From: Omnitrophica bacterium GWA2_41_15
Lineage (GTDB): Bacteria > Omnitrophota > Gorgyraeia > Gygaellales > UBA12090
Reading direction: 5' to 3'
NCBI GenBank assembly: GCA_919902675.1
Contig: CAKKRH010000016.1
Span: 8,789 to 72,788, forward strand
Length of the DNA stretch: 64,000 bases
How positions within the stretch are numbered: the stretch's first letter is position 1; each line of letters starts with the position of its first letter. Made by a program: the position numbers and the translations under genes. Shown here piece by piece: positions 13,698 to 63,950 of the stretch. The notes under the pieces were generated by a model. The model saw only the letters and a list, made by a program, of their open reading frames with translations, had not been told where the DNA came from and searched no databases.

Positions 13698-13722
13698 ATT
13701 ATTTCCGAAAAAACCAAAAACT

Positions 13723-37830: not shown

Positions 37831-37839
37831 AATAATGAT

Positions 37840-37971: not shown

Positions 37972-37989
37972 CTTTTAGAGGAGGAAAAT

Positions 37990-38331: not shown

Positions 38332-38334
38332 AAA

Positions 38335-38368
38335 TTATTATCACAATAGAAAAATTGTGATATAATAA
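38335..38368 (+). other. Imperfect A/T-rich hairpin after glnB (TCACA…TGTGA)
   Basis: ttattatcacaat / attgtgatataataa. Confidence 0.4.
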
Positions 38369-38378
38369 TCAAAAAATT

Positions 38379-38426
38379 AAGGGTCGATAGTCAATGGTTA
38401 AGATTGACTATTGACTATCGACCCTT
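38379..38426 (+). repeat. Perfect 17-bp-stem hairpin made of heptamers (gtcgata gtcaatg … ttgacta ttgacta tcgaccc)
   Basis: aagggtcgatagtcaat / attgactatcgaccctt are exact reverse complements. Located between glnB and glnN. Confidence 0.8.
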
Positions 38427-38456
38427 TATTATTTACTATTCTAATAGGAGGAGGAA

Positions 38457-40649: not shown

Positions 40650-40672
40650 TTCAGACGAATATGTTTTCTCGT

Positions 40673-40747
40673 TGACCCCGCGCCTTTTATTATTCAGTTT
40701 TTAGAAATCAAAACTTGAATATGTAAAAGGCGCGGGGTCATTTTTTT
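40673..40747 (+). terminator. Strong rho-independent terminator after glnN
   Basis: tgaccccgcgcctttt / aaaaggcgcggggtca is a 16-bp perfect stem. The long loop can itself pair. It is followed by T7. Confidence 0.75.
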
Positions 40748-40748
40748 C

Positions 40749-40777
40749 TTGCCTAAAGCCTAAGTATGAGATATTAT
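40749..40777 (+). promoter_or_regulatory. Putative gltB promoter
   Basis: TTGCCT, a 17-nt spacer, then TATTAT, just after the glnN terminator. Confidence 0.4.
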
Positions 40778-40809
40778 AGAAAGTCAAAAGTTAAGAGTCA
40801 AAAACTAAA

Positions 40810-45429: not shown

Positions 45430-45433
45430 AAAG

Positions 45434-45570
45434 AAACACTAAACACTAAATTCTAAATCCTAAACAAATCCAAAACACAAAACCATAAACCTAAAACATA
45501 TTTTTGTTTTGAGTTTCTAACTTTGGGTTTTGAGCTTGTTTAGAGTTTAAGATTTAGAGTTTAGGGTTTT
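45434..45570 (+). repeat. CTAAACAAA-core long hairpin element (copy F, between gltB and gltD)
   Basis: …taaacac taaattc taaatcc taaacaa atccaaa … gagcttgtttagagtttaagatttagagtttagggtttt. It ends 8 nt before the gltD ATG. Confidence 0.8.
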
Positions 45571-45577
45571 ATATGAT

Positions 45578-47041
45578 ATGGCAGTAGACATTAAAGGTTT
45601 CTTAAAGGTAAAGAGAAAATATCCTGAATACCGGCCGGTCTGCGAGCGGGTCAAGGATTATCAGCCGGTTTTTGTCTTGAGGGCGAATCCCCAGAGCCAG
45701 GAACAGGCAGTGCGCTGTATGGATTGCGGCACCCCTTTTTGCCACTCGGGATGTCCGATTGGTAATTATATCCCGGAGTGGAATGAGATGATTGCCGCGG
45801 GAAAGTGGCAGAAGGCCTTTGAACTTCTTAATGCCACCAATAATATGCCGGAGGTTACCGGCCGTCTTTGTCCGGCGCCCTGTGAATACGCCTGCGTCTT
45901 GGGGATTAACGATGACCCGGTAACCATCCGGGAAAATGAATTAGCCATAATTGAGAATGGATTCAAAGAAGGTTTTATTAAGGCCCGGCCGCCTAAGAAA
46001 CGCACTGGTAAGAAAGTGGCGGTAATCGGTTCCGGGCCTGCCGGCCTGTCTTGCGCCGCCCAGTTGAACCAGGCCGGGCATAAAGTAACGGTCTTTGAGA
46101 AATACGACAAGCCAGGAGGGATACTGCGTTACGGTATACCGGACTTTAAGCTAGAGAAGTCTGTGCTTGAGCGTAGGATAGGGATTTGGAAAAAAGAAGG
46201 GATAGTTTTTAAGTGTGGGATAGATGTGGGCGAGGATTATTCGGCTAGAAAATTATTAAAAGATTTTGACGTCGTCTGCCTGGCCGGAGGTTCAAGGGTG
46301 TCCAGGGATTTAAAGATTGAAGGCCGGGAATTGTCCGGGATACACTTTGCCATGGATTACCTGATCCAGTCTAACCGCAGTCTGAGCGAAGAATTGAAAA
46401 ATTCCAATGCGGGTTTGGAGGAAGGTCAGCTTAACGCCAAAGGCAAAAGAGTGCTGGTTATCGGCGGAGGGGATACTGGTGCTGACTGCGTGGGCACTGC
46501 CAATAGACAGGGGGCTTGCTGCGTGGTCCAGATAGAGGTGATGCCTAAACCGTCGGAATGTCGCACTCAGGATATGCCCTGGCCAAAGTATCCGATGATC
46601 TTCAAGACCTCTTCCAGCCATGAAGAAGGCGGAGAGCGTCAGTGGGCAGTGCTGACCAAAAGATTTATTGGTGAGTCTGGAATGGTTAAAAAGGTCTCCT
46701 GCGTGAGAGCTGATTTTTCCCAAAAAGACGATAAAGGCTGTCCCTTGATGAGAGAGATTTCCGGGAGTGAATTTGAGATTGAGGCGGATTTAATCCTTTT
46801 GGCAGTAGGCTTCCTGCATCCGGAGCATAAGAGCCTGCTCAAAGATTTGAAAATAGAGCTTGATCTCCGCGGCAATGTCAAGACTAATGATAATTATATG
46901 ACTTCCCGAAAGGGTGTATTCTCGGCCGGAGATATGCGCCGGGGGCAATCATTGATAGTCTGGGCTATATCCGAAGGCCGCCGCTGTGCCCAGGCCATTG
47001 ATATATATCTCTGCGGTAAAAGCAGTCTTCCTTCCATTTAG
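45578..47041 (+). CDS. gltD: Glutamate synthase small subunit (NAD(P)H)
   Basis: RCMDCGTPFCH, LCPAPCEYAC and VAVIGSGPAGLSCA. Confidence 0.9.
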   Translation: MAVDIKGFLKVKRKYPEYRPVCERVKDYQPVFVLRANPQSQEQAVRCMDCGTPFCHSGCPIGNYIPEWNEMIAAGKWQKAFELLNATNNMPEVTGRLCPAPCEYACVLGINDDPVTIRENELAIIENGFKEGFIKARPPKKRTGKKVAVIGSGPAGLSCAAQLNQAGHKVTVFEKYDKPGGILRYGIPDFKLEKSVLERRIGIWKKEGIVFKCGIDVGEDYSARKLLKDFDVVCLAGGSRVSRDLKIEGRELSGIHFAMDYLIQSNRSLSEELKNSNAGLEEGQLNAKGKRVLVIGGGDTGADCVGTANRQGACCVVQIEVMPKPSECRTQDMPWPKYPMIFKTSSSHEEGGERQWAVLTKRFIGESGMVKKVSCVRADFSQKDDKGCPLMREISGSEFEIEADLILLAVGFLHPEHKSLLKDLKIELDLRGNVKTNDNYMTSRKGVFSAGDMRRGQSLIVWAISEGRRCAQAIDIYLCGKSSLPSI

Positions 47042-47525: not shown

Positions 47526-49208
47526 ATGGCTATCTTGAGACAGCAAATCATTAAGCTTTTAATCGAGCGTGGTGTATTTGACTTAATCGAAGTCGAGGAG
47601 GCCATTAGCCTTCAGAAAAGAGAAGGCCAAAAATTCAGCTCTTTATTGATTAAGCATGCCCCGGAAAAGAAAGACATCGCCATAGAGTTTATAAATCGGA
47701 TTATCAATCCTCCCGCTATTACCGTCTCTCAACTTGTCCAGCTAAAGATACCTCCTGATGTATTAAGGACAATAACTTTCGAAACAGCCAGCCGGTATCA
47801 TATCCTCCCAATCATAAAACAAGGCAATAGTCTTAATGTGGTTTTAGATGATCCTTTTACCATTCTTGATTTAGAGGATGTAAAGGAACTGCAGAATTAC
47901 GCCATAAACCCGATAATCTCACCTAAGGTGGAGTTTATGGGGCAGGTTGAGCTTCGTTATTCCCGGACATTGGATTCTTCTTTTGATTCTAAATTCCAGG
48001 ATATGGATGATATCCTAAGCGGCGTAGCTGAGACGTTAACGGTTTTACGCAAAGACTCCAAAGGTCCTGAAACGACACATATGAACCTGGAGGACGCCCC
48101 GGTTATCAAGGCGACCAATCTTATCCTGGAAAAGGCCGTTGAGGCCCGGGCCAGCGACATACTTATTGAACCGCTTAAAGACAATACCCGGGTGCGTTTT
48201 CGTCTGGATGGGATATTGCAGCAGTTTGAGGACTTGCCCAAGGAATTTCATCAGGCAATCATTTCGCGGATAAAAGTGATTTCCGGCCTGGATATAGCTG
48301 AGCGCAGGCTCCCTCAGGATGGACAGTTTAAGATTAAATTAAGGGGCCGGGAGGTGGAGTTCCGGGTTTCAACCCTTCCAGTGGTAGGAGGCGAGAAGGC
48401 CGTACTCAGGGTATTGGATAAGTCTTTAGGCATGCTCAATATCGATAAATGCGGGATAAGGGATGAATATCTTGAGCCGCTCAAAAAATCGGCCGCCTCT
48501 CCTTATGGGATGATCCTGATGTGCGGACCAACCTGTTCCGGGAAGACCTCGACATTATATTCCCTGTTAAATTATATCCATACCCCGGAGAAGAATACCG
48601 TTACGGTTGAAGACCCGGTGGAATATCAGATAAAAGGATTAAATCAAGTGTCGGTTAATTCCAAGACCGGGCTCACCTTTACCAAATGCCTGCGTTCGAT
48701 ACTCAGGCAGGATCCCGACATAATTATGATTGGAGAGATAAGGGATTTTGAAACCATGGACATCGCCATTAAGGCTGCCTTGACCGGGCATCTGGTCTTA
48801 AGCACCCTGCATACCACCACTGCCCCGGGTTCGGTGGTGCGCATGGTTGATATGGGGGTTCAGCCGTTTCTGATCAACGCCTCGGTAATAGCTGTCATCG
48901 CCCAGCGCCTGGCGCGCAAGATATGCGTTAACTGCAGACAGCCGGTTTCCGGCCAGCCGTATTTTATCGGGACAGGCTGCAGGGACTGTTTTCACACCGG
49001 CTATAGCGGAAGAACGGTTATTACCGAGATCTTGTATATGAACCCGGAAATCAGGGACGCGATAGCCTCCGAAGAGCTCGATGAGGATAAGATAAAAAAT
49101 ATTGCCCGGGAATACGGGATGAAGACCTTAAGAGAAGAGGGAGAATTCCTGGCCCGCCATGGAATAACCACCATGGAAGAGGTTTACAGGCTTACTCCTT
49201 CGGATTAG
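47526..49208 (+). CDS. PilB/GspE-family secretion ATPase, paralogue 1
   Basis: GspE-N-like N-terminus, Walker A GPTCSGKTST (Cys at the usual Gly), Asp box VEDPVEYQ, Walker B IIMIGEIRD, His box LTGHLVLSTLHT, and tetra-Cys CVNC…CRDC. Confidence 0.85.
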   Translation: MAILRQQIIKLLIERGVFDLIEVEEAISLQKREGQKFSSLLIKHAPEKKDIAIEFINRIINPPAITVSQLVQLKIPPDVLRTITFETASRYHILPIIKQGNSLNVVLDDPFTILDLEDVKELQNYAINPIISPKVEFMGQVELRYSRTLDSSFDSKFQDMDDILSGVAETLTVLRKDSKGPETTHMNLEDAPVIKATNLILEKAVEARASDILIEPLKDNTRVRFRLDGILQQFEDLPKEFHQAIISRIKVISGLDIAERRLPQDGQFKIKLRGREVEFRVSTLPVVGGEKAVLRVLDKSLGMLNIDKCGIRDEYLEPLKKSAASPYGMILMCGPTCSGKTSTLYSLLNYIHTPEKNTVTVEDPVEYQIKGLNQVSVNSKTGLTFTKCLRSILRQDPDIIMIGEIRDFETMDIAIKAALTGHLVLSTLHTTTAPGSVVRMVDMGVQPFLINASVIAVIAQRLARKICVNCRQPVSGQPYFIGTGCRDCFHTGYSGRTVITEILYMNPEIRDAIASEELDEDKIKNIAREYGMKTLREEGEFLARHGITTMEEVYRLTPSD

Positions 49209-49219: not shown

Positions 49220-50917
49220 ATGTCTAATACCAAGATTAATCTAAGCAAGATCTTGATTGATTCGGGGAAAATGTCCCTGGAAGAGCTGGGCAAGGCCTTA
49301 TTGATCCAAAAGAATAGCGGCTTTGATCTTAAGAAAATCTTAATTAGCGAGGGCTTCCTTTCCGAGGATGAGCTTTTAGGTTTGATTTCTTACTATATGT
49401 ATGTGCCTTGTCTGGACCTTTTAAAGTTCAGGGTGGACCTTGAAGTGATTAAACTGCTTCCAGAAAATTTGGCGCGTAAATATCAGATTCTGCCTTTACA
49501 CAGGATAGGAGATATTGTTGTGGTGGCAACGGCAGAGCCTCTGGATGTGATTACTTTAGATAATCTGCGCTTGGCCTTTGTTTATGAAATCAGGCAGGTT
49601 TTGTGTAAGGAAGGCCAGATAACGCCTTGTATAGATAAATATTATTCCAGCGACCAGGCCCTTAATGAAATCTTGGAGACCGGAGGACTGGATATAGAGA
49701 AATTATCCCTGACTGGCGATTATCAATCGCAGGACATGCTTCAGGAAAGCCAGAAACAGCCGATTATTGAAGCGGTTAACCTTATAATCGGCGAGGCGAT
49801 AAAGAAAAGGGCCAGCGATATACATATCGAGGCCCTGGAGGAATCCATCCTGGTACGCTACCGCATTGATGGTATATTGCATGAGGCTTATGACCTGCCA
49901 AAAAAAAGCCAGATGGGTATTGTCGCCCGTCTTAAAATCCTTTCCGGGATGGATATAACCAAGTCTTATGTTCCCCAGGACGGCAGGTTTGATATGCTCT
50001 TTTCTGGCAACCGGGAGATAGATTTCCGTGTTTCGAGCCTGCCAACTATTTTCGGCGAGAAGTTTGTCTTGAGGATATTGGATAAGGTTAATTCCATCGT
50101 TAAATTGGAAAGCCTGGGTTTTTCGCCCAGGCAATTGGGATTATTGAGGGATGCGGCCTCCAAGGACCACGGGATGATCCTGATTACCGGCCCTACAGGA
50201 AGCGGAAAGACCACTACTCTGTATTCCCTGCTGGCTGAGATAACCACAATCCACAAGCATATCATCACTGTCGAGGATCCGGTGGAATATCAGATTGACG
50301 GGATTAGCCAGACCCAGGTTAAGCCTGAGATAGAGTTGACCTTTGCCGCGGTGCTCAGGGCTTTGCTTAGGCAGACTCCCGACGTGATTATGATCGGGGA
50401 GATACGCGACGGAGAAACCGCGGATATGGCCATCAAGTCTTCCCTGGTGGGCCAGCTTATTTTAAGCACTCTGCATACCAATGACGCGGTAGGGGCCTTT
50501 GCCAGGCTTAAAGACATGGGCATAGAGCGTTACCTGATAGCCTCTTCCTTGCTTTTGGTCTGTGCCCAGAGGCTTTGCCGCAAGATATGCCTTAACTGCA
50601 AAGAACAGCTTGAGTTTTTGCCCAAATCGATAATCAAGGAATTCGGACCGCGGATCGAAGGCAGGAAATTTTATTACGGTAAGGGATGCGGCGATTGTAA
50701 CAATACTGGATACAAGGGGAGGGTTGCCTTGCTTGAGGCCTTAAAGGTTGATGATGCCATAAAGAATATGATTATTAGGAAAACTTCTTTGGATAAAGTC
50801 AAGGAGTTCGCGCTTGAGGAGAAAAGGCTTATTACCTTAAGGGATGACGGCTTGGATAAGGCCTCAGGTGGAGTAACCACATTAGACGAGATATTGAGGG
50901 TAACGGCCAAGGAATAA
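49220..50917 (+). CDS. PilB/GspE-family secretion ATPase, paralogue 2
   Basis: Walker A GPTGSGKTTT, VEDPVEYQ, VIMIGEIRD, His box variant LVGQLILSTLHT, and tetra-Cys CLNC…CGDC. It starts 11 nt after paralogue 1. Confidence 0.85.
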   Translation: MSNTKINLSKILIDSGKMSLEELGKALLIQKNSGFDLKKILISEGFLSEDELLGLISYYMYVPCLDLLKFRVDLEVIKLLPENLARKYQILPLHRIGDIVVVATAEPLDVITLDNLRLAFVYEIRQVLCKEGQITPCIDKYYSSDQALNEILETGGLDIEKLSLTGDYQSQDMLQESQKQPIIEAVNLIIGEAIKKRASDIHIEALEESILVRYRIDGILHEAYDLPKKSQMGIVARLKILSGMDITKSYVPQDGRFDMLFSGNREIDFRVSSLPTIFGEKFVLRILDKVNSIVKLESLGFSPRQLGLLRDAASKDHGMILITGPTGSGKTTTLYSLLAEITTIHKHIITVEDPVEYQIDGISQTQVKPEIELTFAAVLRALLRQTPDVIMIGEIRDGETADMAIKSSLVGQLILSTLHTNDAVGAFARLKDMGIERYLIASSLLLVCAQRLCRKICLNCKEQLEFLPKSIIKEFGPRIEGRKFYYGKGCGDCNNTGYKGRVALLEALKVDDAIKNMIIRKTSLDKVKEFALEEKRLITLRDDGLDKASGGVTTLDEILRVTAKE

Positions 50918-50919: not shown

Positions 50920-53900
50920 ATGCAAGACGCGAATTTAATATACATTGACGAGTTGACCGATCTCTACAACAGGCGCTATTTATTCACCTACTTGCCCAAA
51001 GAATTGGAGATGGCCGAATCCCAGAAATACAATGTCTGGGTACTTATGCTGGATTTAGACGGATTCAAGGCCATAAACGACACCTACGGGCATCTCTGCG
51101 CGGATGAACTGCTTAAGGATATAGCTAAGATATTAAAGGATAATACAAAGTTTGAGGATAAAAAAATACGTTATGCCGGAGACGAGTTTACCATAGTCAT
51201 ATCCAATATCGACACCAAAGGCATCCCCGAGATAGCCAAAAGGCTGGTGGATAAGGTCAGTGCCTACAGATATAATGATCCCCGCTCCCAGAAGGAGATT
51301 GCCCTTACGGTCAGCCTGGGCATTGCCGGGTATCCTCAAGACGCCATAGAAGCCAGGAAATTAGTGGAGTTGGCGGATAAGGCTTTATATGTCTCAAAGC
51401 AGAAAGGCAAGAATTGTTTTTCCTCGGCTTCGGAAATAACCTCGGAGATGGTTTGGAAAAAGGATATTCTGGAAAGATTTCCTTGTCCTGTATTGGTGGG
51501 CAGGGAAAATGAATTTACCTCTCTGAAAAACTTTTTTAAGCTGACTTCCCAAACAAAAAAGGCGGATATCGTGTTTATCTCAGGGGAATTAGGCTCTGGC
51601 AAGAGCCGCATATTAGGTGAGTTCGGAAGATTCATATCCGCGGACAACAGCTTTATCTGCGCGCAAGCCAAATGCGCGGAGAAATATATGCTTGAGCCTT
51701 ATCGTATCCTGACCAATGTGTTGTATGGCTATTTTTCCAAGTTGGATAAGCTTCCTGAGGAACTTTTTGAAGGTTTTTCCAGGGATGAATTGTCGGTTTT
51801 ATTCAGCCTGCTTCCGGGCCTTGCCGATATGGCCGGGCTCGTCCAGGATAAGGACAAATCTCCCCATGATCCGCTTAAGCTCAGGGATTCATTAATTAAG
51901 CTGTTATCCAACCTATCATTAAAGAAATCCCCTTTAGCTATACTGCTGGATGATTTTCAGTATGTTGATGAGCAGACTATGGAATTATTATTATGTCTGG
52001 CGAAGAACAAAGGCCAGGCCGCGGTCTTGATTGTTTGTGCCTTTTCTTTAGCCGATGTATCGCAAGATATCGTTTTTAAGCCTGAGGCCTTTAGCGGTTG
52101 CGGTGAAGCCGTGATCTTGTCAAGTTTATCCGAAGAGGGGGTAAAAAATATGATATTGGCGATCTTTGCCGATATTTCGCTAACCGTTGATTTTTATGAT
52201 TTGATTTATAGGACAACTAAAGGCAACCCGCTCTTTGTGGAAGAGCTCTTGAAGCATATAGTGGAGAAGGAATATATATTCTATCAAAGAGGCCAGTGGA
52301 TGCAAAGAGACATTAAAGAGGCCGACCTTCCTAAGTCCATAGGGGATACTATTAAGGCCAGGCTGGAGATCTTAAGTCCGGAAATGAAGGATATGATCGC
52401 CAAGGCCGCGGCCATCGGCGGCAACTTTCAGATTGACCTCTTGCAGGGGATTGATAGCGAGGATAAGGGCTATGTTATGGATTTGGTGGGTTCAGCCAAG
52501 AAGATAGGCCTGATTTATGAAGCTGGCCCGGGAGGAGGCGATGAGTTCCGTTTTGCCACCGATGAAGTCCGGAAAATACTTTTTAAGGTTATCGGAGACA
52601 GCAATACCAAGCGCATATATTCCCGCTTAGGCCAGGCCGAAGAAAGGCTTAATTCGGACAATCTATCCAGGATAGCCGGCGAGCTTTATTATAATTTCAA
52701 GAAGGCCGAAGACTGGTCTAAGGCCGAGCATTACGCGAAGCTGGTTAAAGAAGGAAAAGGCGTATTTTATGACCAGGCCGTCAAGTACGCCCAGGATGTC
52801 CTGGAGGAAGCCAATATCAGTAAAATGCTTGCTCCTTTAAGCAAAGAGGCATTTTCACGAATGCCGGAGCTTATCCGTTCCATATATATAGCCGGAGTAA
52901 ACAGTACCCTGTATCCGGAAAACAGCCAGATCCGCGTTAAGTCCAACGAAGACGCCTATAATCTGCTGGTTAAGGCTTTATCGGAAACGGACCTATTGAA
53001 TATCGCCCGTATTGATAAGACTATAATCGTCAATAATAAAAAATTAGGCAAGGATATAAAGAACATATTCGTGGATTCTTTCAACTCGGCTTTAAGGAAT
53101 TTAAGCGTAGAAAGCGTATCTTTTCAAAAAGGGGTTAGTTTAGAGGAGCTTACAAAGTTCGTAAATCTGGTGAATTCCGCGGAAGAAAAAGAAGAGGGTT
53201 TCTTAAAGTGCCTGGAAAACTCAGGGGTGGTTAATATACGGGTAAATGAGGTAATCTACGACGTAGCTAAGAAGAAATCTAAGGAAAAGGAAGGGCTGGA
53301 AGATATCATGCTTATTGACTATCTTATGGGCAGGCTTCCGGGTAAGGGCAAGGCCGCGGACATGTCCGCGGCGGTAACGACTCACGCCGAAAAAATAGCT
53401 CAGGAGCTGGAGCGTTTAGGTGAACAGGCCGCCAATGCCGCCCCCGGCGTAGATAAGCAGGCGCTTAAGGCTGAAATTGTAGCCAAAAGCATTCAAAAAG
53501 TAGGGGGTAAGCTTTCCGCTAATGATGTAAATACGGACAAATATAAAGAGGGGTTGTCCAAAGCTATATTAGCTATGGAGCCAGCCTTGCGTTCGGATGT
53601 CTTGGCTAATCAGGCTGAAGACAAAGATGCCGATTCGGGTATAATTCAGGAGTTGGGGAGGGAATTGCCCGATGAGGTGATTATTGATGTCTTGAGTCGG
53701 CAGTATCTTAAAAAAGATATCGGCCTGGATAAAATGAAAAGGCTGGCGGAGCGTTTCTTGTTTAACCCGCAGAAGAAGAGCCGGATGGCTCCTGTTTTAA
53801 AGGAAAAGCTTACCGGTTTGGGGGCGTCCAAGGAGGAATGTGACTGGATTCTGGGCATTCAGGAGAGAGAGATTTCTTTGGACGCGAAGATGAAGAAGAT

Positions 53901-54900
53901 CATAGCCTTGCCGGCTAAGGAATTGGTCAGGGTGCTTCCGACATTAGAAATTGATTATGTGGTTAAAGAGTTCATGGTTCAGAAAGACGAGGCTCAGATT
54001 GAGGCGGTGATGGAGAGCCTGATCAGGGCCTTGGAACAAAAGCATCCCGACAACCACCTGCTCTCCGGATATCTGAAGAATATGCTGGATATATTCATCA
54101 AGAGCTCTCCCGACAAATTACTGCCTAAGTTCATATACCGCTTCTGTAAGATTTATCCTCAGCATAGGGAAATCCTGCCGGTGTTTCTGGCGGTTTTTGA
54201 CTCTTATTTAGACCGGCTTATCCGCACTTTCCTTTCAGCCGAAAGATTTGATTTAATGAGGGATTTGCTTGAAGTTTACGCGAGCGATCAGAAGGCTATT
54301 GAAGGCGTTTCGGGGATCATAAATTCCATATCTGACAAATTAATTGAAGAATTCGTCAGGCGCATGGACACCAAACTGGATCTGGGTGTGCTCACGGAAA
54401 TAGTCATCCTACTTAAAGATAAGGTGCTGGGTAAGCTGATAGATTCGGGATTATTCGAAGGAGGTGTGCCGGAAGGCAAGTATTTTGAGGCCTATCTGAG
54501 GAGGCGGGTAATCGCCAGAATTCTTGACTGTATGCCCAGCGAACTTGTGTTGAACATTTTTAAGAACAGGTTTATGTCCGTCAAGAGTTACCTGACGAAC
54601 AATTTGATTGAGATTATAGCCGCGATGGAAAGCGAAGATATCGCCGAGGCCCTTGAGCCTGTGCTTTCCGGTCCAGACCCCGCGGTGCGCCGCAAGGTAA
54701 TTTTCGTTTTAGGGAAAATGAAGTCTGGCAGAAGCGCCAGGTTGCTGTTAAAGATTTCCGGCGATAAAGATAAAGAGGCCGCGGGCCTGGCCTTACGGAC
54801 CCTTAAAGGCCGGGCTGATGAGGCGGCCAAACTGGTTATCAAGGCGGCCTTAGGAAGCAACAGCCTCATCCAGGCTTTGCGCGACGGATTATCGTCATGA
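50920..54900 (+). CDS. 1326-aa GGDEF (AGDEF variant) diguanylate-cyclase domain + AAA_16/STAND-like NTPase + long helical region + C-terminal HEAT repeats
   Basis: DELTDLYNRRYL…LDLDGFKAINDTYGH…IRYAGDEFTIVI, then VGRENEFTSL…IVFISGELGSGKSRILGEF (Walker A) and LAILLDDFQYVDEQT (Walker B), then a HEAT-like tail DPAVRRKVIFVLGKMKSGRSARLLL. It starts 2 nt after the pilB paralogue 2 stop. Confidence 0.7.
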   Translation: MQDANLIYIDELTDLYNRRYLFTYLPKELEMAESQKYNVWVLMLDLDGFKAINDTYGHLCADELLKDIAKILKDNTKFEDKKIRYAGDEFTIVISNIDTKGIPEIAKRLVDKVSAYRYNDPRSQKEIALTVSLGIAGYPQDAIEARKLVELADKALYVSKQKGKNCFSSASEITSEMVWKKDILERFPCPVLVGRENEFTSLKNFFKLTSQTKKADIVFISGELGSGKSRILGEFGRFISADNSFICAQAKCAEKYMLEPYRILTNVLYGYFSKLDKLPEELFEGFSRDELSVLFSLLPGLADMAGLVQDKDKSPHDPLKLRDSLIKLLSNLSLKKSPLAILLDDFQYVDEQTMELLLCLAKNKGQAAVLIVCAFSLADVSQDIVFKPEAFSGCGEAVILSSLSEEGVKNMILAIFADISLTVDFYDLIYRTTKGNPLFVEELLKHIVEKEYIFYQRGQWMQRDIKEADLPKSIGDTIKARLEILSPEMKDMIAKAAAIGGNFQIDLLQGIDSEDKGYVMDLVGSAKKIGLIYEAGPGGGDEFRFATDEVRKILFKVIGDSNTKRIYSRLGQAEERLNSDNLSRIAGELYYNFKKAEDWSKAEHYAKLVKEGKGVFYDQAVKYAQDVLEEANISKMLAPLSKEAFSRMPELIRSIYIAGVNSTLYPENSQIRVKSNEDAYNLLVKALSETDLLNIARIDKTIIVNNKKLGKDIKNIFVDSFNSALRNLSVESVSFQKGVSLEELTKFVNLVNSAEEKEEGFLKCLENSGVVNIRVNEVIYDVAKKKSKEKEGLEDIMLIDYLMGRLPGKGKAADMSAAVTTHAEKIAQELERLGEQAANAAPGVDKQALKAEIVAKSIQKVGGKLSANDVNTDKYKEGLSKAILAMEPALRSDVLANQAEDKDADSGIIQELGRELPDEVIIDVLSRQYLKKDIGLDKMKRLAERFLFNPQKKSRMAPVLKEKLTGLGASKEECDWILGIQEREISLDAKMKKIIALPAKELVRVLPTLEIDYVVKEFMVQKDEAQIEAVMESLIRALEQKHPDNHLLSGYLKNMLDIFIKSSPDKLLPKFIYRFCKIYPQHREILPVFLAVFDSYLDRLIRTFLSAERFDLMRDLLEVYASDQKAIEGVSGIINSISDKLIEEFVRRMDTKLDLGVLTEIVILLKDKVLGKLIDSGLFEGGVPEGKYFEAYLRRRVIARILDCMPSELVLNIFKNRFMSVKSYLTNNLIEIIAAMESEDIAEALEPVLSGPDPAVRRKVIFVLGKMKSGRSARLLLKISGDKDKEAAGLALRTLKGRADEAAKLVIKAALGSNSLIQALRDGLSS

Positions 54901-54942: not shown

Positions 54943-55404
54943 ATGGAAAAAGATTTTGTTTTTCAGCGAAAGATCCGCAAGGTAAACCTGATCGGCCAGG
55001 TCCTCTTAAAGAAAAACCTGATTAGCCAGGAGCAGTTGGAGGCGGGCCTGAATATTCAGAAAAGCGAGGGCGGATTATTGGGTAATATCTTGGTGGGTAA
55101 GGGTTTTTTGTCGGAGGAATCCTTTGCCATGGCCTTGTCCAGCCAGCTGGACTTAGCCTATATACCGATAGAAAAATACAACGTGTCCCGGGAGGCTATT
55201 AAGATGGTCCCCAGGAATTTGGCAGAGAAAAATTGTATTTTGCCAATAGAGAAGACCGGCAGCGTCTTGACCCTGTCTTGCGCTGACCCGCTTAACGTCA
55301 GGGCGATTGCCGAGGTGGAAGCAGTGGCTAATTGCCTGGCAGTCCCTCTTATCGGGACGCGTTCGGAAATAGAAAAGGCGATACATTCGCACTATTCAAG
55401 CTGA
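54943..55404 (+). CDS. Stand-alone GspE N-terminal (T2SSE_N / MshEN-like) domain protein
   Basis: 153 aa. Tandem 24-residue motifs LIGQVLLKKNLISQEQLEAGLNIQ and LLGNILVGKGFLSEESFAMALSSQ are separated by 5 aa (KSEGG). They are followed by …VPRNLAEKNCILPIEKTGSVLTLSCADPLN…, typical of the T2SSE_N fold. Confidence 0.65.
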   Translation: MEKDFVFQRKIRKVNLIGQVLLKKNLISQEQLEAGLNIQKSEGGLLGNILVGKGFLSEESFAMALSSQLDLAYIPIEKYNVSREAIKMVPRNLAEKNCILPIEKTGSVLTLSCADPLNVRAIAEVEAVANCLAVPLIGTRSEIEKAIHSHYSS

Positions 55405-55486: not shown

Positions 55487-56704
55487 ATGTCTAAATACGC
55501 TTACTTAGCCAAGGATAAAGAAGCCCATAGCTTTAGTGGGACAATTGAGTCCAGAGATCCCTCTGCGGCGGTATTAGAGCTAAAGAAGAGGGGCCTGATC
55601 GTAATTTCGGTAGTTGAAGAAAAAGTGGTCAAGGCAAAGGCCGGGGATAAATTTAAAGGCAAAAAGATAAAGACTGCTGAGATTGTAGTCTTTTGCCGGC
55701 AATTAGCCACCCTGGTTTCATCGGGGGTGTCTTTATTGACCTGTTTGAATATCATCTACGATCAGATCGAAAGCGTTTATTTAAAGCAAATAGTTGTGGA
55801 TTTAAAAAAGGATATCGAGGCCGGAAGTAGTCTGTTTAACGCCTTTTCCAAATATCGCGGTGTATTTCCCGGGATCTTCATAAATATGGTCAAGGCCGGG
55901 GAGGCCAGCGGGAGCTTGGGTGAGATTCTGGATCGGGTGGCAGTATACTTAGAGAAGAGCGAGAAGACCGCGCGCAAGATAAAAGCGGCCATGACCTATC
56001 CGGCCATAGTCATATTTATGTCCGTGGCTATCCTGATCTTTCTTATCCTTAAAGTAGTGCCTACTTTTAAGAGCATGTTTGAAAGCCTGAAAGGGGAATT
56101 ACCTTTACCTACCAAGCTTTTAATCGCGATCAGCGACAATGGCCTGCGTTTCTTTCCTTTTATCCTGGTAGGTGCTGTGCTTGCATGGATTATTTTTATC
56201 AAATACATCAACAGCGATAAAGGTAGATTGAATTTTGACCGTTTCAAGCTTAAGGCCCCGATGTTCGGAGCGCTTTTTGAGAAAGTGGTAATGAGTAGGT
56301 TTGCCTCAACCCTGGCCATCCTCTTAAGAAGCGGGGTGAATATCCTTGAGGCCTTTGACATTGTGGGTGAGGTTTTGGGAAATAAGGTGATTCAAGGCGC
56401 GGTCCAGCAGACCAAGATTTCTTTGAGCTCAGGCACCAATATCGCCAAGCCGATGGAGGAGACCGGCCGGTTTCCTCCATTTGTCTATAAGATGATCGCC
56501 ATCGGCGAGCAGACGGGTGAGCTGGAAAAAATGCTGGCCAAGGTTTCCGAATATTACGAATCCCAGGTGGATGAGGCCATAGCCGGGCTTTCTTCTATGA
56601 TTGAGCCTCTGATTATTTCTTTTCTGGGCACGACCGTGGGCTTTATCGTGGTTTCGATGTTTCTGCCGATATTCAAGATGACCCAGATGGTCCAAGGAGG
56701 TTGA
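55487..56704 (+). CDS. pilC: Type IV pilus / T2SS platform protein (PilC/GspF family)
   Basis: 405 aa with a duplicated GspF-type domain (FCRQLATLVSSGVSLLTCL and FASTLAILLRSGVNILEAF), three TM segments and C-terminal PLIISFLG…VSMFLPIF. Confidence 0.9.
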   Translation: MSKYAYLAKDKEAHSFSGTIESRDPSAAVLELKKRGLIVISVVEEKVVKAKAGDKFKGKKIKTAEIVVFCRQLATLVSSGVSLLTCLNIIYDQIESVYLKQIVVDLKKDIEAGSSLFNAFSKYRGVFPGIFINMVKAGEASGSLGEILDRVAVYLEKSEKTARKIKAAMTYPAIVIFMSVAILIFLILKVVPTFKSMFESLKGELPLPTKLLIAISDNGLRFFPFILVGAVLAWIIFIKYINSDKGRLNFDRFKLKAPMFGALFEKVVMSRFASTLAILLRSGVNILEAFDIVGEVLGNKVIQGAVQQTKISLSSGTNIAKPMEETGRFPPFVYKMIAIGEQTGELEKMLAKVSEYYESQVDEAIAGLSSMIEPLIISFLGTTVGFIVVSMFLPIFKMTQMVQGG

Positions 56705-57881: not shown

Positions 57882-60800
57882 ATGAAAAAGAATCTTAGGC
57901 TAGGCAATCAGGGCTTTATCCTAATGACCACCCTTATGGTGGGCACGGTCCTGACCGTGCTCTCCGGGGCCTATTTTGCCTCTTCCTTAAGCCAGAGTAA
58001 TATCGCCAGAAGGCAGTTTGAGGCCAACCAAGAGTTTTACAGCGCCGAATCCGGGATTGCCTATGGTTATGTGGAGGCGCTAAGCGGGGGCACCTTGACG
58101 CATAAAATAATAAACTCGATAACCGGAGAGCTTGAGGGCGAACTTAAAGGCGATAGGCAGTTTTCCGCGGATGTCGTTGACATTGACGGCTCAGGAAATA
58201 TGGTTATCAAGAACAAGGCAGGCAGGGTTATTGCCAAGGGAAAAATATACGAAAAAGGCTCGGATACTATTATCCTGGTTCAGGCGGTTAACGCGGACGG
58301 AGAAGAAACAGGACCGATACACCGTTATGTGATAAGCCATAAATCACTGTATAAGTATTTTGAGTTTTATGACACCGGCACCTGTAATGCCGCCGGAAAT
58401 TGGAAGTGTTATGAATGGAGCCTTGGCTGGTCAGGGACGCATAAAGGTAAGCTGGTTGCGAATGCCAGCACGAGCCCCGAAACCTATTTTGCCGTAGGCA
58501 AGGTCCATGTCAACGGTAATATTTTATTAAATGTTGAGGATTTTGAAAGCCTTCCGGAGTTGAGCTGTTCCGGACAATTCCTTTATGGCAACAAAACTCA
58601 ATTTAGCGAACCGGCGTTATGGGATAACATAACTTGGAATAATACCAATAAAAGCCGCACTTATAACTACAATCAATCAAATTGCGCCAACTGTATGCTT
58701 GATGGCCTGGCACCTCTGAATCGCTATGAATATTCTCCTTATAACTTTGTCTATCCTTTAGAGTATGATAATTTGACTGTTACGGCCTCTCCGATTTCGG
58801 AAAGAAGCGGCACGGCCAGAGATTGGGCACACGAACCCGGAGTGCATATCTATGGTTATCAGGTAACCGATGACTGGCCCGATATAACCACTTACGGTAA
58901 CACGCATTTTTGGATGGATATTGATAAAAGCGGGGTTCTAACTTCAAGCGAAAGGCAATATATCCCTAAGATACTGCCTAGTTGCTCCGGCTGCGGTTAT
59001 GATTGGGATAAATATAGCGGTAATCTTAATGATAATTACGCGAGCTGGTTAAGGTTTGGTAGCGGGTCAACCACTTGCTCTGATTCCCAAGCGGTAAGAT
59101 TTGAGGTTACCAACAGTAGTTATCAATATGAAGCCTTAAGGTGGTTGGCGGATAAGGAAAGCGCCGCTAATCCCAATATCAGCAGCAGTAGCCCCAGCGA
59201 ATACAGCAGTGCCACAACCGCTAACTGGCTGACTACCGCGGCCACAACCGCAAGCAGTGTATCTGCGAACAGTCGGTGGGATTCTTATGAATACGACCGG
59301 GTAACCCTTTTGAGTATACTGAATGAAGGCAATGCCGCATCCGGCCTCAATCCCAATCAAGGCTCAGGGCTGAAGGACCAAAGCGAATACGGCCTTTATG
59401 TAATAGTTAAATATTATCTGGCGAATGGGAGCTTTCCTTCTGGAACAGACGCGGTTATACAAAATTGGGTTACGGATTCAGGTCGATTACCGGCTTTTGA
59501 CGGCGTGTCCGGCCTTTCTTTAAATGATTTTTTTGCCTGGTGGAAACAGCGCAGGCATCATCACGGATTTGACCTTTCTGACTGCTCCTCTGCCTCTTAT
59601 GACGGGAATTGGTGTTTTTCTAATGATAAAACAGCTCAGACCACCGATGGCTATGGCCGCGCTGTCCCGGCAGTCCCGGCCTGGGAGAGGATTTTCTGGG
59701 AGGCCTGGCTTAATTATTGGCCTCCTGTCCGGGGTAAAAACCATAATCAGGTTTATAGCCCTGCGGACAACCGCCACGCCATAAATCCAGAATGGTGGGA
59801 GGACCTGGTTTATGGAAATGACCGCCCGGTTTCTGGAACTACGGATACAGTATTATCCTTGACTCATCTTAATACCTATAACGAGCCTCAAGCGGGTGTA
59901 TTTTCCGCTTGGCTTAAGGATAGGGGTCTGCTTGATGAGTCTAATAATTATGCCGGCAGTATTATTAAGTTTGACGCTCCTATAAGCGGTTATCATGGCC
60001 ATGCTGATTGCCCAGGACACGGAGGAGAAATACTTGAGCCGTTGAGCATAAAGGAGGCCTATAAGCCTCTTGCCCAGAAGGCAGGGGGGCTTTTTATAGA
60101 GCAAACTGCCGCGGATGAATTTACCGTTTATTATAACGGTGCTAATGTAGCTGATGGAGCGAGTTTAAGCGCTTGCCTGTCCGCGCTAAACGCCGCCGGA
60201 GGAGGAGCCGCCTGGATATCGGCCCAGGAGTTTTATAACCCCTATACTATCACTAAAGGAGTTTATGATCCTGCGCTAAGAAATCAGGATGAGACCAATA
60301 GCTCCAAGACCGCGGTGTATATTAACCCTTGCGATGTATATAGTACACTTGCCTATCCTTATATAGTAGATAACAGCGCCAGCTCTTGCTCTAGCTCCAC
60401 TGCTATACCTCCGACAGTAAAGGCCATACAGATAGATATCTCGCTTATGCCTTTTATAGGCGATAGCGATGATGATCATGTTATTTATATAGATGCTCCA
60501 GGCTATGATGTTCGTTTAAAAAACGGGGCTAAATTGCCGAATAACTTTACTTTGGCTAGCCCTTATGATGTCTATGTCCAGGCCCAAAAAAAGAGCGAAA
60601 GCGAGATGTCTTCTTTGTCCGGAGTTAATATAAATTTCGACGGGGATGCCACGGTTAATGAGGCAGATGTTTACCGGGGGGTGTTTAATTATGAGATAGG
60701 AGATAAAACCAGAACGGATCAAGGCTTAGATGCTAATTTTAAACCGGCGGCAGTGATTACTAATTCCCGGGTTTATTTTCTTTCTTCGGAGTTTCTGGAT

Positions 60801-61484
60801 AGAAACACCGTTTTTCCTTTCAGCTATCAATATCCGGCCAATCCTTATAGCGTGAAGAATGATTATTTTCTGGAGACTTATTGTGATCCCGTATGGCCTA
60901 CTTCTTGCGGCGGCGTTTCCGGTTTTCCCGCGGAGCCAGACCCAGTCACTTGGAGCTGGGTCAGGACTAATCTTACTGATCAGCAGCAGGGATGCTTATT
61001 GGCTGCCGGAGAGTCCAGATATCAAAGCGTGCACGCGGCGGATATGGTAAATACGGTCGGGTTCGGACAGCTTTTTAATCTGGCTGTGGCCAGCCCTTTT
61101 GAGCCCTGGGGATACCGCCTGGAGCGCTGGGGAGGCAGTTCTTCTCCGCTATTTCTGGAGGGGGCGTTTCTTAAGATCGGTTTTTGGCGTAATGAGGACC
61201 TTAGTTATAAGTACACCCGTTACCATACCCGGCCTGATACCGTGGTGAACTGGTATGAGAGAGCCAGGGAGTCAATTACCAGCGGCCACGAATATATGGC
61301 GGATGACTTAAAAGTAGCAAATAATTCCGTCAGCAGCAGCGTGACTTATGAATATGAAGAGAGGTTCTGGATGCCTGGAGGCCAGCCTTCAGGGGATTTC
61401 CTGGCCAGCGGCTATGAGCAGAGATGGGATCAGTTAAGCGGAACGGATGAAAATTTTGATTACGATACTCTACCTGAGCTTTAG
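57882..61484 (+). CDS. 1200-aa PilX_N-like pilus-associated protein (putative tip/adhesin), otherwise uncharacterised
   Basis: The N-terminus GFILMTTLMVGTVLTVLSGAYFASS…RRQFEANQEFYSAESGIAYGY matches my recollection of the PilX N-terminal domain pattern. The rest is W/Y/N/S-rich with no motif I recognise. It has its own promoter-like element upstream. Confidence 0.45.
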   Translation: MKKNLRLGNQGFILMTTLMVGTVLTVLSGAYFASSLSQSNIARRQFEANQEFYSAESGIAYGYVEALSGGTLTHKIINSITGELEGELKGDRQFSADVVDIDGSGNMVIKNKAGRVIAKGKIYEKGSDTIILVQAVNADGEETGPIHRYVISHKSLYKYFEFYDTGTCNAAGNWKCYEWSLGWSGTHKGKLVANASTSPETYFAVGKVHVNGNILLNVEDFESLPELSCSGQFLYGNKTQFSEPALWDNITWNNTNKSRTYNYNQSNCANCMLDGLAPLNRYEYSPYNFVYPLEYDNLTVTASPISERSGTARDWAHEPGVHIYGYQVTDDWPDITTYGNTHFWMDIDKSGVLTSSERQYIPKILPSCSGCGYDWDKYSGNLNDNYASWLRFGSGSTTCSDSQAVRFEVTNSSYQYEALRWLADKESAANPNISSSSPSEYSSATTANWLTTAATTASSVSANSRWDSYEYDRVTLLSILNEGNAASGLNPNQGSGLKDQSEYGLYVIVKYYLANGSFPSGTDAVIQNWVTDSGRLPAFDGVSGLSLNDFFAWWKQRRHHHGFDLSDCSSASYDGNWCFSNDKTAQTTDGYGRAVPAVPAWERIFWEAWLNYWPPVRGKNHNQVYSPADNRHAINPEWWEDLVYGNDRPVSGTTDTVLSLTHLNTYNEPQAGVFSAWLKDRGLLDESNNYAGSIIKFDAPISGYHGHADCPGHGGEILEPLSIKEAYKPLAQKAGGLFIEQTAADEFTVYYNGANVADGASLSACLSALNAAGGGAAWISAQEFYNPYTITKGVYDPALRNQDETNSSKTAVYINPCDVYSTLAYPYIVDNSASSCSSSTAIPPTVKAIQIDISLMPFIGDSDDDHVIYIDAPGYDVRLKNGAKLPNNFTLASPYDVYVQAQKKSESEMSSLSGVNINFDGDATVNEADVYRGVFNYEIGDKTRTDQGLDANFKPAAVITNSRVYFLSSEFLDRNTVFPFSYQYPANPYSVKNDYFLETYCDPVWPTSCGGVSGFPAEPDPVTWSWVRTNLTDQQQGCLLAAGESRYQSVHAADMVNTVGFGQLFNLAVASPFEPWGYRLERWGGSSSPLFLEGAFLKIGFWRNEDLSYKYTRYHTRPDTVVNWYERARESITSGHEYMADDLKVANNSVSSSVTYEYEERFWMPGGQPSGDFLASGYEQRWDQLSGTDENFDYDTLPEL

Positions 61485-62515
61485 AGCTCTTCTAAAGCCA
61501 GGCCCGCGGCCACCGAGAAAAGAGCCGGGCCGGCCTGGGATGCCTGAGAGGAAAGCTTGGGATTGAGATTGAAGTTCTGGAAGGGATTGATGAAAATTGG
61601 CTCTAAATTTAAGTACCCGCCTAAAAATTCCTTAAGTTCGGAAAACTGCGAAAACCCCCCTGCCAGGTACACCTGGTCGATCCTTTGCTCGGTGAGATTT
61701 TCGTAAAAGTCAAAGGAGGCGAAGATCTCATTCAGGAGATTGGTCAGAGAGAGCTTTACCATCTGTTTGACTTCGGCTGAGACACTATGCATATCGCGTT
61801 TGAGTTCTTCGGCCTTAGCCTGGTCTATATTCAGCTTGGTTTTAAGCAGAAAGCCGATGGTTTCGCCCCCGAAGCGGACATCCCTCACAAAGTAGGGAGT
61901 TTTATTTTTGGTAATTATAATGTTGGTGGTTTTGTTGCCGATATTGAGTATCGCGATATTGGCGTTGTTTTCGTTGCTTGGCCCGGAGTAGTTGAAATAC
62001 AGGGTATTCTTTATGGCCAAAGCGTCCATGGTTACCACCTGGGCCTTAAGCCCGGCTTCTTGAATAAGCTTTGACTTTGCTTCAATCAGCTCCTTCTTGG
62101 CAGCCACCAAAAATACCTGCATCCGGTTTTTTGACCTGGGGTCATCCCCGATTATCTTATAATCGGTATATACCTCATCGGCCTTAAAAGGGATGTGGTC
62201 TTCAATCTGGAATTCCATCGCTTTCTTGAGCTCATCCGGGGCCATCTTGGGCAGGGAAAGATACCTGGCTACCACATTTTCCCCGGCGATAGAGATATTC
62301 ACCTCTTTTGCCGAGATGTTGGCTTCCTTAAGCAGGTCTTTTATTGCCTTTGGTATGCCGGTTGGGTCAAGATCCTGGATATTTTTTATCCCCATATTGA
62401 TCATCTTGGAAGTCTTGTCGGCGATTTCTATTTCCACCACTTTCAGGTTATCGCTTCCGATATCCAGGCCGACTCTCCGAGGAGATTTTTTCTTGAATAA
62501 ATCAAAGGTTTTCAT
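61481..62515 (-). CDS. pilM: Type IV pilus assembly protein PilM (actin-like ATPase fold)
   Basis: VGLDIGSDNLKVVEI at the N-terminus, and …VYLAGGFSQFSELKEFL near the C-terminus. 344 aa. Confidence 0.8.
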   Translation of the reverse strand: MKTFDLFKKKSPRRVGLDIGSDNLKVVEIEIADKTSKMINMGIKNIQDLDPTGIPKAIKDLLKEANISAKEVNISIAGENVVARYLSLPKMAPDELKKAMEFQIEDHIPFKADEVYTDYKIIGDDPRSKNRMQVFLVAAKKELIEAKSKLIQEAGLKAQVVTMDALAIKNTLYFNYSGPSNENNANIAILNIGNKTTNIIITKNKTPYFVRDVRFGGETIGFLLKTKLNIDQAKAEELKRDMHSVSAEVKQMVKLSLTNLLNEIFASFDFYENLTEQRIDQVYLAGGFSQFSELKEFLGGYLNLEPIFINPFQNFNLNPKLSSQASQAGPALFSVAAGLALEEL

Positions 62516-62558: not shown

Positions 62559-63950
62559 TTATTTTTTTTTGCCTTTTTCCAGGGCCATGGCCATTGCCTG
62601 GTCTTTGGGGGTTGGTTTTTCTTTTCTTTTCATAGGAGTAAAAAGTTTAGAACGGGCATCTCTCAGCCTTTCTCTCTCCTCTTCGGAAATAGTGGCTCCT
62701 TCAATGATCCGGGGAGTGATAAAGACAATTAATTCGGTATCGGTTTCTTCTCTTAAGGTGCGGCTGAAGATTTTACCCAATAATGGTATATCTCCCAGAA
62801 GCGGAATTTTATCTATGGTAACGGTTTGGTCTTTTTTTCTTAAACCCCCGATAACCACGGTTTCATTATCTTTGAGCATCAGGTTGGTTTCGGCCTTGCG
62901 GGAGTCGATCGCCGGTTCGTTGGTGCTTCCTACGTAAGAGGCGACATAGCTTTGTTCGGTTTTGACGCTTAAAGAGATAAACTTCTCTTCGGTTTTGGTG
63001 ATATGCGGGGTAACGTAAAGTTTTATGCCTGTTTCTTTAAACTGGGTAGAGGAAACAGTTGAGCTTCCTTCAGTGCTTTGGGCGGTATAGGTGTAAGGAA
63101 CCTGTTCGGTGATTTCAATTTGAGCGGCTAGGTTATCCAGGGTGAGGATGCGGGGGGTAGCCAGGATCTTTACATCGCTGTCTTCAGCAAAGAGGGCCAG
63201 ATGGGAGGTGAGACTATAGGAGGGGAAGACGGTCTTGCCGTAATAAAGGTCTAGCACCGAAGATGAGGGGATGAGGGTTTGATTTCCATGCAGGTAGGAC
63301 TTGTCTTTATGGATTATGGTCCAGTCAATCCCCAGCTTATCCGTATCCTTAAGCTTTACGCTCATAATCAAGGCCTCAATCAGGACCTGGGGGGTGCGGA
63401 TATCCAACTTCTTGGCCAGATTCTCAATTTTTTCGATTACATCCGGGATATCGTTTATAATCAGTGAGTTTGTGGGAACATCCGCCTCCATGCTGCCGCG
63501 GCTGGAAAGCATCTTGCTTAAGGATTTTTGCAATTCGTCGGCTTTGGCAAAATTAAGGGTATAGATTTTGGTTATGGTTGAAATAACCTCTTCTTCTTTT
63601 TTAATCGTATCCGGAGTAGTTATGCGGATAATATTATCCTGGGTTTTGTAGGTCAGGTCGTTGGTCTTTAAGATGGTATCCAGGGCGGTTTCCCAGGTTA
63701 CGTCTTTGAGGGTTATATTAATATTGGCGCTGACATTTTTGTCCACCACGATGTTCAGCCCGCTGGCCTGGGAGATAATCTTTAGCGCGTCTTTAATATC
63801 CGCGTCTTTCAGGTTCAGGTTGAGCAGATTAGCTTCCCCGGCGAGGGTGTTTTGCTGGGAATAGAGGGGTATTATATTGAGCTGGGTTAAGATAAGGGAG
63901 ATGGCCGGGAAAATTACAATCTTTTTTAATAAAGATTTTTTCATTTTCAT
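62559..63950 (-). CDS. pilQ: Secretin (PilQ/GspD family)
   Basis: A signal peptide, N-domain LKDADIKDALKIISQASGLNIVVD, and secretin C-domain VVIGGL…IPLLGDIPLLGKIFS…ELIVFITPRII. Confidence 0.85.
   Translation of the reverse strand: MKMKKSLLKKIVIFPAISLILTQLNIIPLYSQQNTLAGEANLLNLNLKDADIKDALKIISQASGLNIVVDKNVSANINITLKDVTWETALDTILKTNDLTYKTQDNIIRITTPDTIKKEEEVISTITKIYTLNFAKADELQKSLSKMLSSRGSMEADVPTNSLIINDIPDVIEKIENLAKKLDIRTPQVLIEALIMSVKLKDTDKLGIDWTIIHKDKSYLHGNQTLIPSSSVLDLYYGKTVFPSYSLTSHLALFAEDSDVKILATPRILTLDNLAAQIEITEQVPYTYTAQSTEGSSTVSSTQFKETGIKLYVTPHITKTEEKFISLSVKTEQSYVASYVGSTNEPAIDSRKAETNLMLKDNETVVIGGLRKKDQTVTIDKIPLLGDIPLLGKIFSRTLREETDTELIVFITPRIIEGATISEEERERLRDARSKLFTPMKRKEKPTPKDQAMAMALEKGKKK

Follow-up and report, generated by a model that had tools for sequence, protein, structure and literature searches.

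The window analysed here, a 64-kb stretch of the Omnitrophica bacterium GWA2_41_15 contig CAKKRH010000016.1, carries a pilus cassette in which a gene for a 153-residue protein lies between a candidate diguanylate cyclase and the PilC platform protein (Table 1). The protein is a free-standing MshEN domain, a type of receptor for cyclic di-GMP (c-di-GMP), in which both copies of the tandem 24-residue motif begin with Leu in place of Arg. [quoted passage not shown] The host belongs to an uncultivated, small-celled phylum.

Table 1. Features of the free-standing MshEN gene and of the surrounding pilus cassette, in positions of the window (aa, amino acids; ORF, open reading frame; dN/dS, ratio of nonsynonymous to synonymous substitution rates; AF2, AlphaFold2).
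Feature	Positions	Strand	Basis
Free-standing MshEN/GSPII gene, 153 aa	54943..55404	+	ORF, homologues, dN/dS
Motif I, LIGQVLLKKNLISQEQLEAGLNIQ, L16-Q39, equivalent to Vibrio cholerae MshE R9-Q32	54988..55059	+	Alignment to 5htl and PilF GSPII-B
Spacer KSEGG, K40-G44, 5 residues	55060..55074	+	Read from sequence
Motif II, LLGNILVGKGFLSEESFAMALSSQ, L45-Q68, equivalent to MshE R38-Q61	55075..55146	+	Alignment, NF053729.1, pattern scan
MshEN_C (N1E-like) alpha/beta subdomain, residues 69-152	55147..55398	+	Pfam PF05157, AF2, PilF alignment
PilB-type ATPase paralogue 1 (PilB1), degenerate N-terminal motif (QII...)	47526..49208	+	Pfam T2SSE and MshEN, sequence
PilB-type ATPase paralogue 2 (PilB2), degenerate motif (NLS... 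and DLK..., ending YY)	49220..50917	+	Pfam
GGDEF, AAA_16 STAND NTPase and C-terminal HEAT repeats, 1326 aa, candidate dedicated diguanylate cyclase	50920..54900	+	Pfam, NCBIfam TIGR00254, motif
PilC/GspF platform protein	55487..56704	+	Pfam T2SSF, E=1.9e-62; syntenic in all cassette loci
Two pseudopilins, 148 and 203 aa	56706..57766	+	N_methyl motif, TIGR02532
1200-aa protein, N-terminal hydrophobic helix, conserved cassette member	57882..61484	+	No Pfam or NCBIfam match
PilM (actin-like, GspL-related), candidate partner for the N1E-type subdomain	61481..62515	-	Pfam PilM_2, E=7.7e-51; T2SSL, 27 bits
Secretin (PilQ/GspD-like)	62559..63950	-	Pfam Secretin, Secretin_N, STN

The gene is real and under strong purifying selection: homologues of the protein span 145-159 residues at 34-92% identity, and codon comparison with two related loci, L032 and L033, gives dN/dS values of 0.09 and 0.08, respectively. 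Read-through from the upstream cyclase gene into a fusion protein was considered and rejected, as TAA and TAG stop codons lie in frame within the 42-nt spacer; both genes are in one reading frame in the window, and in different frames at locus L001. The protein ends at residue 153 and neither Pfam nor NCBIfam finds a T2SSE ATPase domain in it, so it is a homologue of an ATPase N-domain and not an ATPase, and it constitutes a complete stand-alone MshEN/GSPII domain. Pfam PF05157 matches residues 69-152 (E=2.9e-15), a limited extent that is to be expected because the Pfam model omits the first three helices and thus the c-di-GMP site, as set out in the supplement of Wang et al. 2016 (PMC5013675). 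Residues 1-68, corresponding to the c-di-GMP-binding four-helix bundle, lie outside that match, and an annotation drawn from Pfam only is blind to the binding site.

The N-terminal region is captured by NF053729.1 ("c-di-GMP_motif, MshE-related"), a curated NCBIfam model of 53 positions with a cut-off of 38 bits, which matches residues 17-68 at 59.0 bits. The first 75 residues alone align in register with the V. cholerae MshEN structure 5htl (E=6.6e-8), with each residue number equal to that of MshE plus 7: R9, L10, G11, L25, L29 and Q32 of MshE correspond to L16, I17, G18, L32, L36 and Q39 in motif I, and R38, L39, G40, L54, L58 and Q61 to L45, L46, G47, F61, L65 and Q68 in motif II. A phmmer search against solved structures matched the Thermus thermophilus PilF GSPII domains and MshEN 5htl over residues 11-152, along with PilB N-domains of Geobacter and Myxococcus; in the PilF alignment, D115 falls on PilF D266. 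The AF2 model (predicted local distance difference test score, pLDDT, 81.5) has four helices (residues 16-23, 29-42, 46-52 and 58-66) followed by an alpha/beta subdomain, and Foldseek ranks MshE with bound c-di-GMP (5htl, E=2.4e-10) as its best match, with the PilF GSPII-B c-di-GMP complexes 8pdk and 8pe0 (K167L) also at the top. The root-mean-square deviation from the crystal structures is about 13 A, a large value because the orientation of the subdomains is poorly determined.

These comparisons bear on whether the motif might reflect the generic helix periodicity of T2SSE_N domains, or chance. The PF05157 match, covering residues 69-152 and not the motif region, could be read that way, but the Pfam model is known to omit the first three helices (PMC5013675), the N-subdomain aligns to 5htl as given above, and NF053729.1 accepts the protein at 59 bits but rejects the PilB N-domains encoded in its operon. 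Furthermore, when the whole window was translated in six frames, a relaxed single-motif pattern matched only motifs I and II, and it gave 0 matches in 200 shuffles. Together, these results effectively refute a generic or chance origin. A preliminary description of this DNA had proposed an MshEN-type free-standing domain with a tandem, Arg-less motif, while allowing that the generic T2SSE_N helix pattern might account for it; the open reading frame is as quoted there, the alignment with V. cholerae MshE holds both motifs in register and the profile agrees, with a score of 59.0 bits beside same-operon PilB N-domains below the cut-off.

Within the motifs, Gly is kept at position 3 (G18 and G47) and Gln at position 24 (Q39 and Q68) of both copies, the spacer has the length found in MshE and PilF GSPII-B, and the Leu triads of MshE (L10/L54/L58 and L39/L25/L29) are represented by I17/F61/L65 and L46/L32/L36. 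The preliminary description was thus accurate on the five-residue spacing (K40-G44), on both terminal Gln residues and on Leu replacing Arg in both copies (L16 and L45), but it overstated the case in calling the hydrophobic positions exact, as I17 and F61, and also N25 in place of Gly, depart from the consensus. Besides the Arg-to-Leu change, motif I has Ile for Leu at position 2 and Asn for the central Gly and motif II has Phe for Leu at position 17; motif II also carries Phe at its position 11, which only the V. cholerae version of the motif permits. Applied as a strict regular expression, the published pattern finds no match in the protein, even with (R/K/L) at position 1; since these departures are conservative and the family shows them often, we do not take the failure as evidence against membership. 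All motif substitutions of the protein are found naturally among MshEN domains, and F61 is Leu in more distant homologues. At position 1, L16 and L45 differ from the Arg of the 2016 consensus and agree with the extended (R/K/L)LG consensus, so that the absent Arg does not exclude membership. Invariant in nine homologues, down to 50% identity, are L16, G18, L32, L36 and Q39 of motif I and L45, L46, G47, G54, L65 and Q68 of motif II.

The fate of Arg-less domains, which the preliminary description had treated as an open question, is for Leu already a matter of published record. In MshE, the role of Arg9 and Arg38 is limited to guanine stacking and changes of Arg9 alter affinity less than 5-fold, while binding is undetectable in V. 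cholerae MshEN G11L and poor, if any, in G40I (PMC5013675); the backbone amides of the position-3 Gly read the guanine, and this Gly is important for binding (PMC5013675, PMC12002112). PilF GSPII-B, with Lys167 and Leu196 at position 1, binds c-di-GMP with a dissociation constant (KD) of 6 nM, and its K167L variant, a Leu/Leu domain, with a KD of 2 nM and with Leu stacked on guanine in the crystal structure 8pe0 (Neissner et al. 2024, PMC11731258). Restoring Arg in GSPII-B weakens binding, to 150 nM in K167R (25-fold) and 23 nM in L196R (4-fold), and the consensus was widened to (R/K/L)LG, with the proposal that a hydrophobic first residue predicts very high affinity (PMC11731258).

A word-indexed search returned only 9 close relatives of the protein, and an exhaustive HMMER search exposed the wider family, from whose best 158 proteins we aligned 230 MshEN_N domains. 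Arg/Arg is the commonest position-1 pair (26 domains) and Leu/Leu the second (22), and Arg is absent from both sites in 110 of the 230. Proteins of at most 200 residues account for 41 of the 158 best matches, and among the 40 domains in proteins of this size Leu/Leu is the commonest pair (14), with the Gly/Gly/Gln/Gln set kept in 35; sequence databases contain MshEN proteins of the free-standing kind in abundance. We consider it likely, with good though not full confidence, that the 153-residue protein binds c-di-GMP, and by analogy with PilF GSPII-B its affinity should be nanomolar. A switch of ligand, to 3'3'-cyclic GMP-AMP (cGAMP), pGpG or another dinucleotide, might be argued from the departure from MshE at position 1 and from the ability of MshEN to bind cGAMP, albeit weakly (KD 0.33 mM; PMC5013675). 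However, the specificity determinants, namely the amides at Gly and the following residue and the Leu triads, are kept, the Leu/Leu form of PilF GSPII-B has a KD of 2 nM for c-di-GMP and the operon partner is a GGDEF-type cyclase, all of which makes such a switch very improbable.

The PilB-type ATPases of the cassette present a different picture. In PilB1, Ile occupies the position-3 Gly site of motif I, motif II is unrecognisable and NF053729.1 gives no match; PilB2 has Ser and Lys at the position-3 Gly sites and Tyr for the final Gln of motif II, and reaches 29.6 bits, under the cut-off. The preliminary description had attributed similar Arg-less motifs to both paralogues: the strings that it quoted are present, but grouping them with the 153-residue protein is mistaken, as both paralogues are without the position-3 Gly and miss the profile cut-off. 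The same division is seen at two related loci, L034 and L036, where the free-standing proteins pass the model (59.0, 65.4 and 59.3 bits for the window, L034 and L036, respectively) and the PilB proteins fall below it (no match, 37.6, 22.1 and 36.6 bits), so that six of the six PilB proteins at these three loci are below the cut-off. At two further loci, L002 and L035, the PilB proteins adjacent to the free-standing gene carry Thr, Ser or Val in place of the Gly residues. The PilB ATPases of the window probably cannot sense c-di-GMP. The two ATPase genes stand in tandem with no PilT-type (N-domain-less) ATPase alongside, and the pair is kept in L034 and L036.

The preliminary description was also right in placing a cyclase gene next door: the gene immediately upstream encodes a GGDEF domain (Pfam E=1e-42). 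Its signature is RYAGDEF, in which residues 86-90 read AGDEF and not GGDEF, and this form is kept in the window, L001, L034 and L036, in orthologues with identities as low as about 40%; at the place of the RxxD inhibitory site (I-site) stands KFED (residues 77-80), with KxxD also in L034 and L036 and KSDD in the L001 orthologue. AGDEF conservation and KFED suggest a conserved, possibly feedback-insensitive enzyme. In L036 the cyclase-STAND-HEAT orthologue (3992..8000) is divided over two open reading frames of 527 and 802 residues, a division that could be genuine or could stem from a frameshift in the metagenome-assembled genome (MAG), and the free-standing MshEN gene begins at the base right after the cyclase stop codon.

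The order of cyclase-STAND-HEAT gene, free-standing MshEN gene and PilC gene recurs in L001, L032, L033, L034 and L036, with MshEN identity falling to 34%, and both upstream PilB genes are also visible in L034 and L036. Of the genome matches, that to an Omnitrophica WOR_2 MAG is the best (L001, 48% identity). Domain identity, motif integrity, conservation and synteny are direct observations. In the window, L034 and L036, no more than 0-42 nt separate the cyclase-HEAT gene from the free-standing gene, which, with KxxD in place of RxxD at these loci and KSDD in L001, could point to a protein that binds c-di-GMP for buffering, or for feedback on the RxxD-less cyclase through its HEAT region, and not for motor switching. 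Against this stand L002, L035 and L038, where the free-standing gene occurs without a cyclase, directly upstream of PilB or PilT-type ATPases; because the cyclase is absent there, the link of the free-standing gene to the ATPases is broader than that to the cyclase, and we think a buffering or feedback role unlikely. The top multi-domain matches include no fusion of MshEN with STAND/HEAT or GGDEF domains; the fusions among them are multi-MshEN PilB ATPases, glycosyltransferases, REC and PilZ only. A sole GGDEF-MshEN link was noticed in an Omnitrophota MAG (L020, JAGOLA010000119.1), where a 395-residue open reading frame ending near position 1192, read by eye, has a receiver-like N terminus, a GGDEF-type motif (HIGGDDF) and a C-terminal MshEN_N-like tandem motif (PLGQILLEKN...ILLGEVLKELN...), and would thus fuse a domain of cyclase type to the receptor motif.

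Since the gene lies between the AGDEF cyclase and PilC, and since both PilB proteins are without the ligand-contacting Gly, we read the protein as a trans sensor of the pilus machine. We infer its ligand binding, affinity, partner and direction of regulation, and on sequence grounds the protein is most likely a working sensor for the neighbouring machine, not a broken or exotic one; that it is a high-affinity c-di-GMP receptor acting in trans is, in our estimate, somewhat better than an even bet. In the mechanism that we propose, one c-di-GMP would be bound in the N-terminal four-helix bundle through the published hydrophobic variant of the site, with Leu16 and Leu45 stacking on the two guanines in place of MshE Arg9 and Arg38, the guanine O6/N7 edge being read by backbone amides at Gly18-Gln19 and Gly47-Asn48, Gln39 and Gln68 holding the ribose-phosphate ring, and the hydrophobic triads Ile17/Phe61/Leu65 and Leu46/Leu32/Leu36 forming the floor of the site. 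The c-di-GMP supplied by the neighbouring cyclase would load the protein, which would then dock by its N1E-like C-subdomain on PilM, PilC or PilB and switch pilus assembly. There is precedent for both elements: Xanthomonas PilB is without the motif and receives c-di-GMP input in trans, via PilZ-FimX on its N-domain, and the N1 domains of GspE/EpsE bind the PilM paralogues GspL/EpsL (PMC8389850). The fuller form of the proposal, in which the split-off nanomolar MshEN domain would be the sole c-di-GMP-competent part of an Omnitrophota type IV pilus-like machine, fed by an AGDEF cyclase on a STAND/HEAT scaffold and signalling in trans to blind ATPases, we put forward tentatively, as possible at somewhat less than an even chance.

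Several points weigh against the trans-receptor reading. The residues I17, N25 and F61 depart from the consensus in addition to the Arg positions. PilF GSPII-A shows no c-di-GMP binding even after full restoration of the consensus (PMC12002112), its pocket being obstructed by an extended and capped helix alpha1 and by contacts between the subdomains (PMC12002112), and motif integrity is therefore necessary but not sufficient. Residues 1-13 of the 153-residue protein, which would decide the state of its pocket, are modelled by AF2 at a pLDDT below 50. The PilB protein of L002 (1287..2984) passes NF053729.1 at 60.1 bits despite RLT and RLS at its motif starts, so that the "blind ATPase" pattern rests on few loci and partly on a single-residue argument; as this protein passes without the Gly, the score alone is no guarantee of an intact site and the Gly needs a separate check. 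AGDEF is active in V. cholerae VCA0965 but has been described as degenerate in NbdA, and PilM, PilC and PilB are candidate docking partners only. Literature searches turned up no binding assay or experimental study of any free-standing MshEN protein, and the Wang et al. supplement has no "stand-alone" entry.

The GSPII-A precedent also frames the principal rival, in which the protein would be a non-binding structural landing pad or decoy, its fold kept for protein contacts (for example, competition with the PilB N-domains for PilM) and its pocket occluded. As GSPII-A demonstrates, even a perfect consensus is no assurance that an MshEN-like sequence will bind (PMC12002112), and the AF2 model of our protein has a helix over residues 2-13, just ahead of motif I. 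That helix is, however, modelled at a pLDDT below 50, and residues K10-N15 (KIRKVN) do not fit the Ser/Thr/Asp-xx-Glu/Gln/Asp N-cap pattern; native GSPII-A, moreover, has His and Arg for the two Gln residues, and its motif II has Ser at position 1 and Ala at position 3. G18, G47, Q39 and Q68 are invariant though the fold does not need them, and they are lost in the PilB proteins of the same operon. We therefore hold a non-binding role to be unlikely, to much the same degree as buffering or feedback, if perhaps a shade less so. The decoy idea, raised already in the preliminary description, is in itself a question of output and not of ligand binding.

Elsewhere in the cassette, the 1200-residue protein has an 84% identical orthologue in L032 and weak matches in L001 and L036; a giant protein of the pilus or its tip is one possibility for it. 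Some 20 kb upstream of the cassette, a 446-residue HD-GYP protein (33744..35084, + strand; HDIGK ... HHLRYDLKGYP; Pfam HD and HD_5) is a candidate c-di-GMP phosphodiesterase by its sequence; pairwise BLASTP finds weak homology (E=3e-6) between its N-terminal stretch of about 130 residues and residues 652-778 of the AGDEF-STAND-HEAT protein, a resemblance that may mark a regulatory module common to cyclase and phosphodiesterase. It is preceded by a 654-residue open reading frame without a Pfam match (31724..33688, + strand), whose N terminus weakly resembles the cyclase module (E=0.01), and this in turn by a 263-residue HD-domain protein with a Cys-rich N terminus (30943..31734, + strand). The rest of the window is housekeeping (110..15578 and 36604..47041), one block with lipopolysaccharide (LPS) core, Kdo and Lpt genes and another with nitrogen assimilation genes for Amt, type III glutamine synthetase and both glutamate synthase subunits, large and small.

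Earlier publications cover the MshEN domain, the way in which it binds and the Arg-to-Leu variant, and an NCBI annotation model already captures the 153-residue protein. What is new is a conserved operon logic in Omnitrophota-like genomes, which joins a candidate dedicated cyclase with AGDEF, a probable receptor split off from the ATPases, and ATPases whose own motifs are degenerate. For annotation, MshEN proteins are better judged by the 53-residue motif model together with the position-3 Gly than by Arg. If binding and partner are confirmed, cyclase, receptor and motor in one operon would amount to a simple, self-contained form of local c-di-GMP signalling, and the hydrophobic first residue would become testable as a predictor of nanomolar affinity. 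Were the split-sensor reading true, the protein would be the first single-domain MshEN adaptor to act in trans, and the counterpart in this family of the stand-alone PilZ proteins.

Among known systems, the Xanthomonas citri PilB-PilZ-FimX complex (7lkm) resembles the proposed arrangement in combining a motif-less pilus ATPase N-domain with a separate c-di-GMP receptor in trans; there, however, the receptor is a degenerate EAL protein (FimX) bridged by PilZ, whereas in the window an MshEN domain would itself serve as the trans receptor. Two non-binding members share its fold, PilF GSPII-A (9g1w) and the Xanthomonas campestris XpsE N-domain (2d27), but the former has His33 and Arg62 for Gln, along with Ser39 and Ala41, and the latter G11V, G40L, Q61V and other changes, whereas the 153-residue protein keeps the key residues. 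The founding member, the V. cholerae MshE N-domain (5htl), is its best structural match and is in register over both motifs; it differs in having Arg9/Arg38 where our protein has Leu16/Leu45, and its MshEN domain, with a KD of 0.5 uM, is fused to the ATPase. T. thermophilus PilF GSPII-B (8pdk) is one of three domains fused to a PilB-type ATPase and not free-standing, its Arg268 pre-orients the Asp where our protein has Leu117, and the identity is about 30%. The two nevertheless have in common the two-subdomain GSPII fold with tandem 24-residue motifs and a 5-residue spacer, the Gly, Leu and Gln contacts, the Asp after the third strand (PilF D266, D115 here) and a hydrophobic first residue other than Arg, which is Lys/Leu in native GSPII-B and, in the K167L structure 8pe0, Leu/Leu exactly as in the 153-residue protein.

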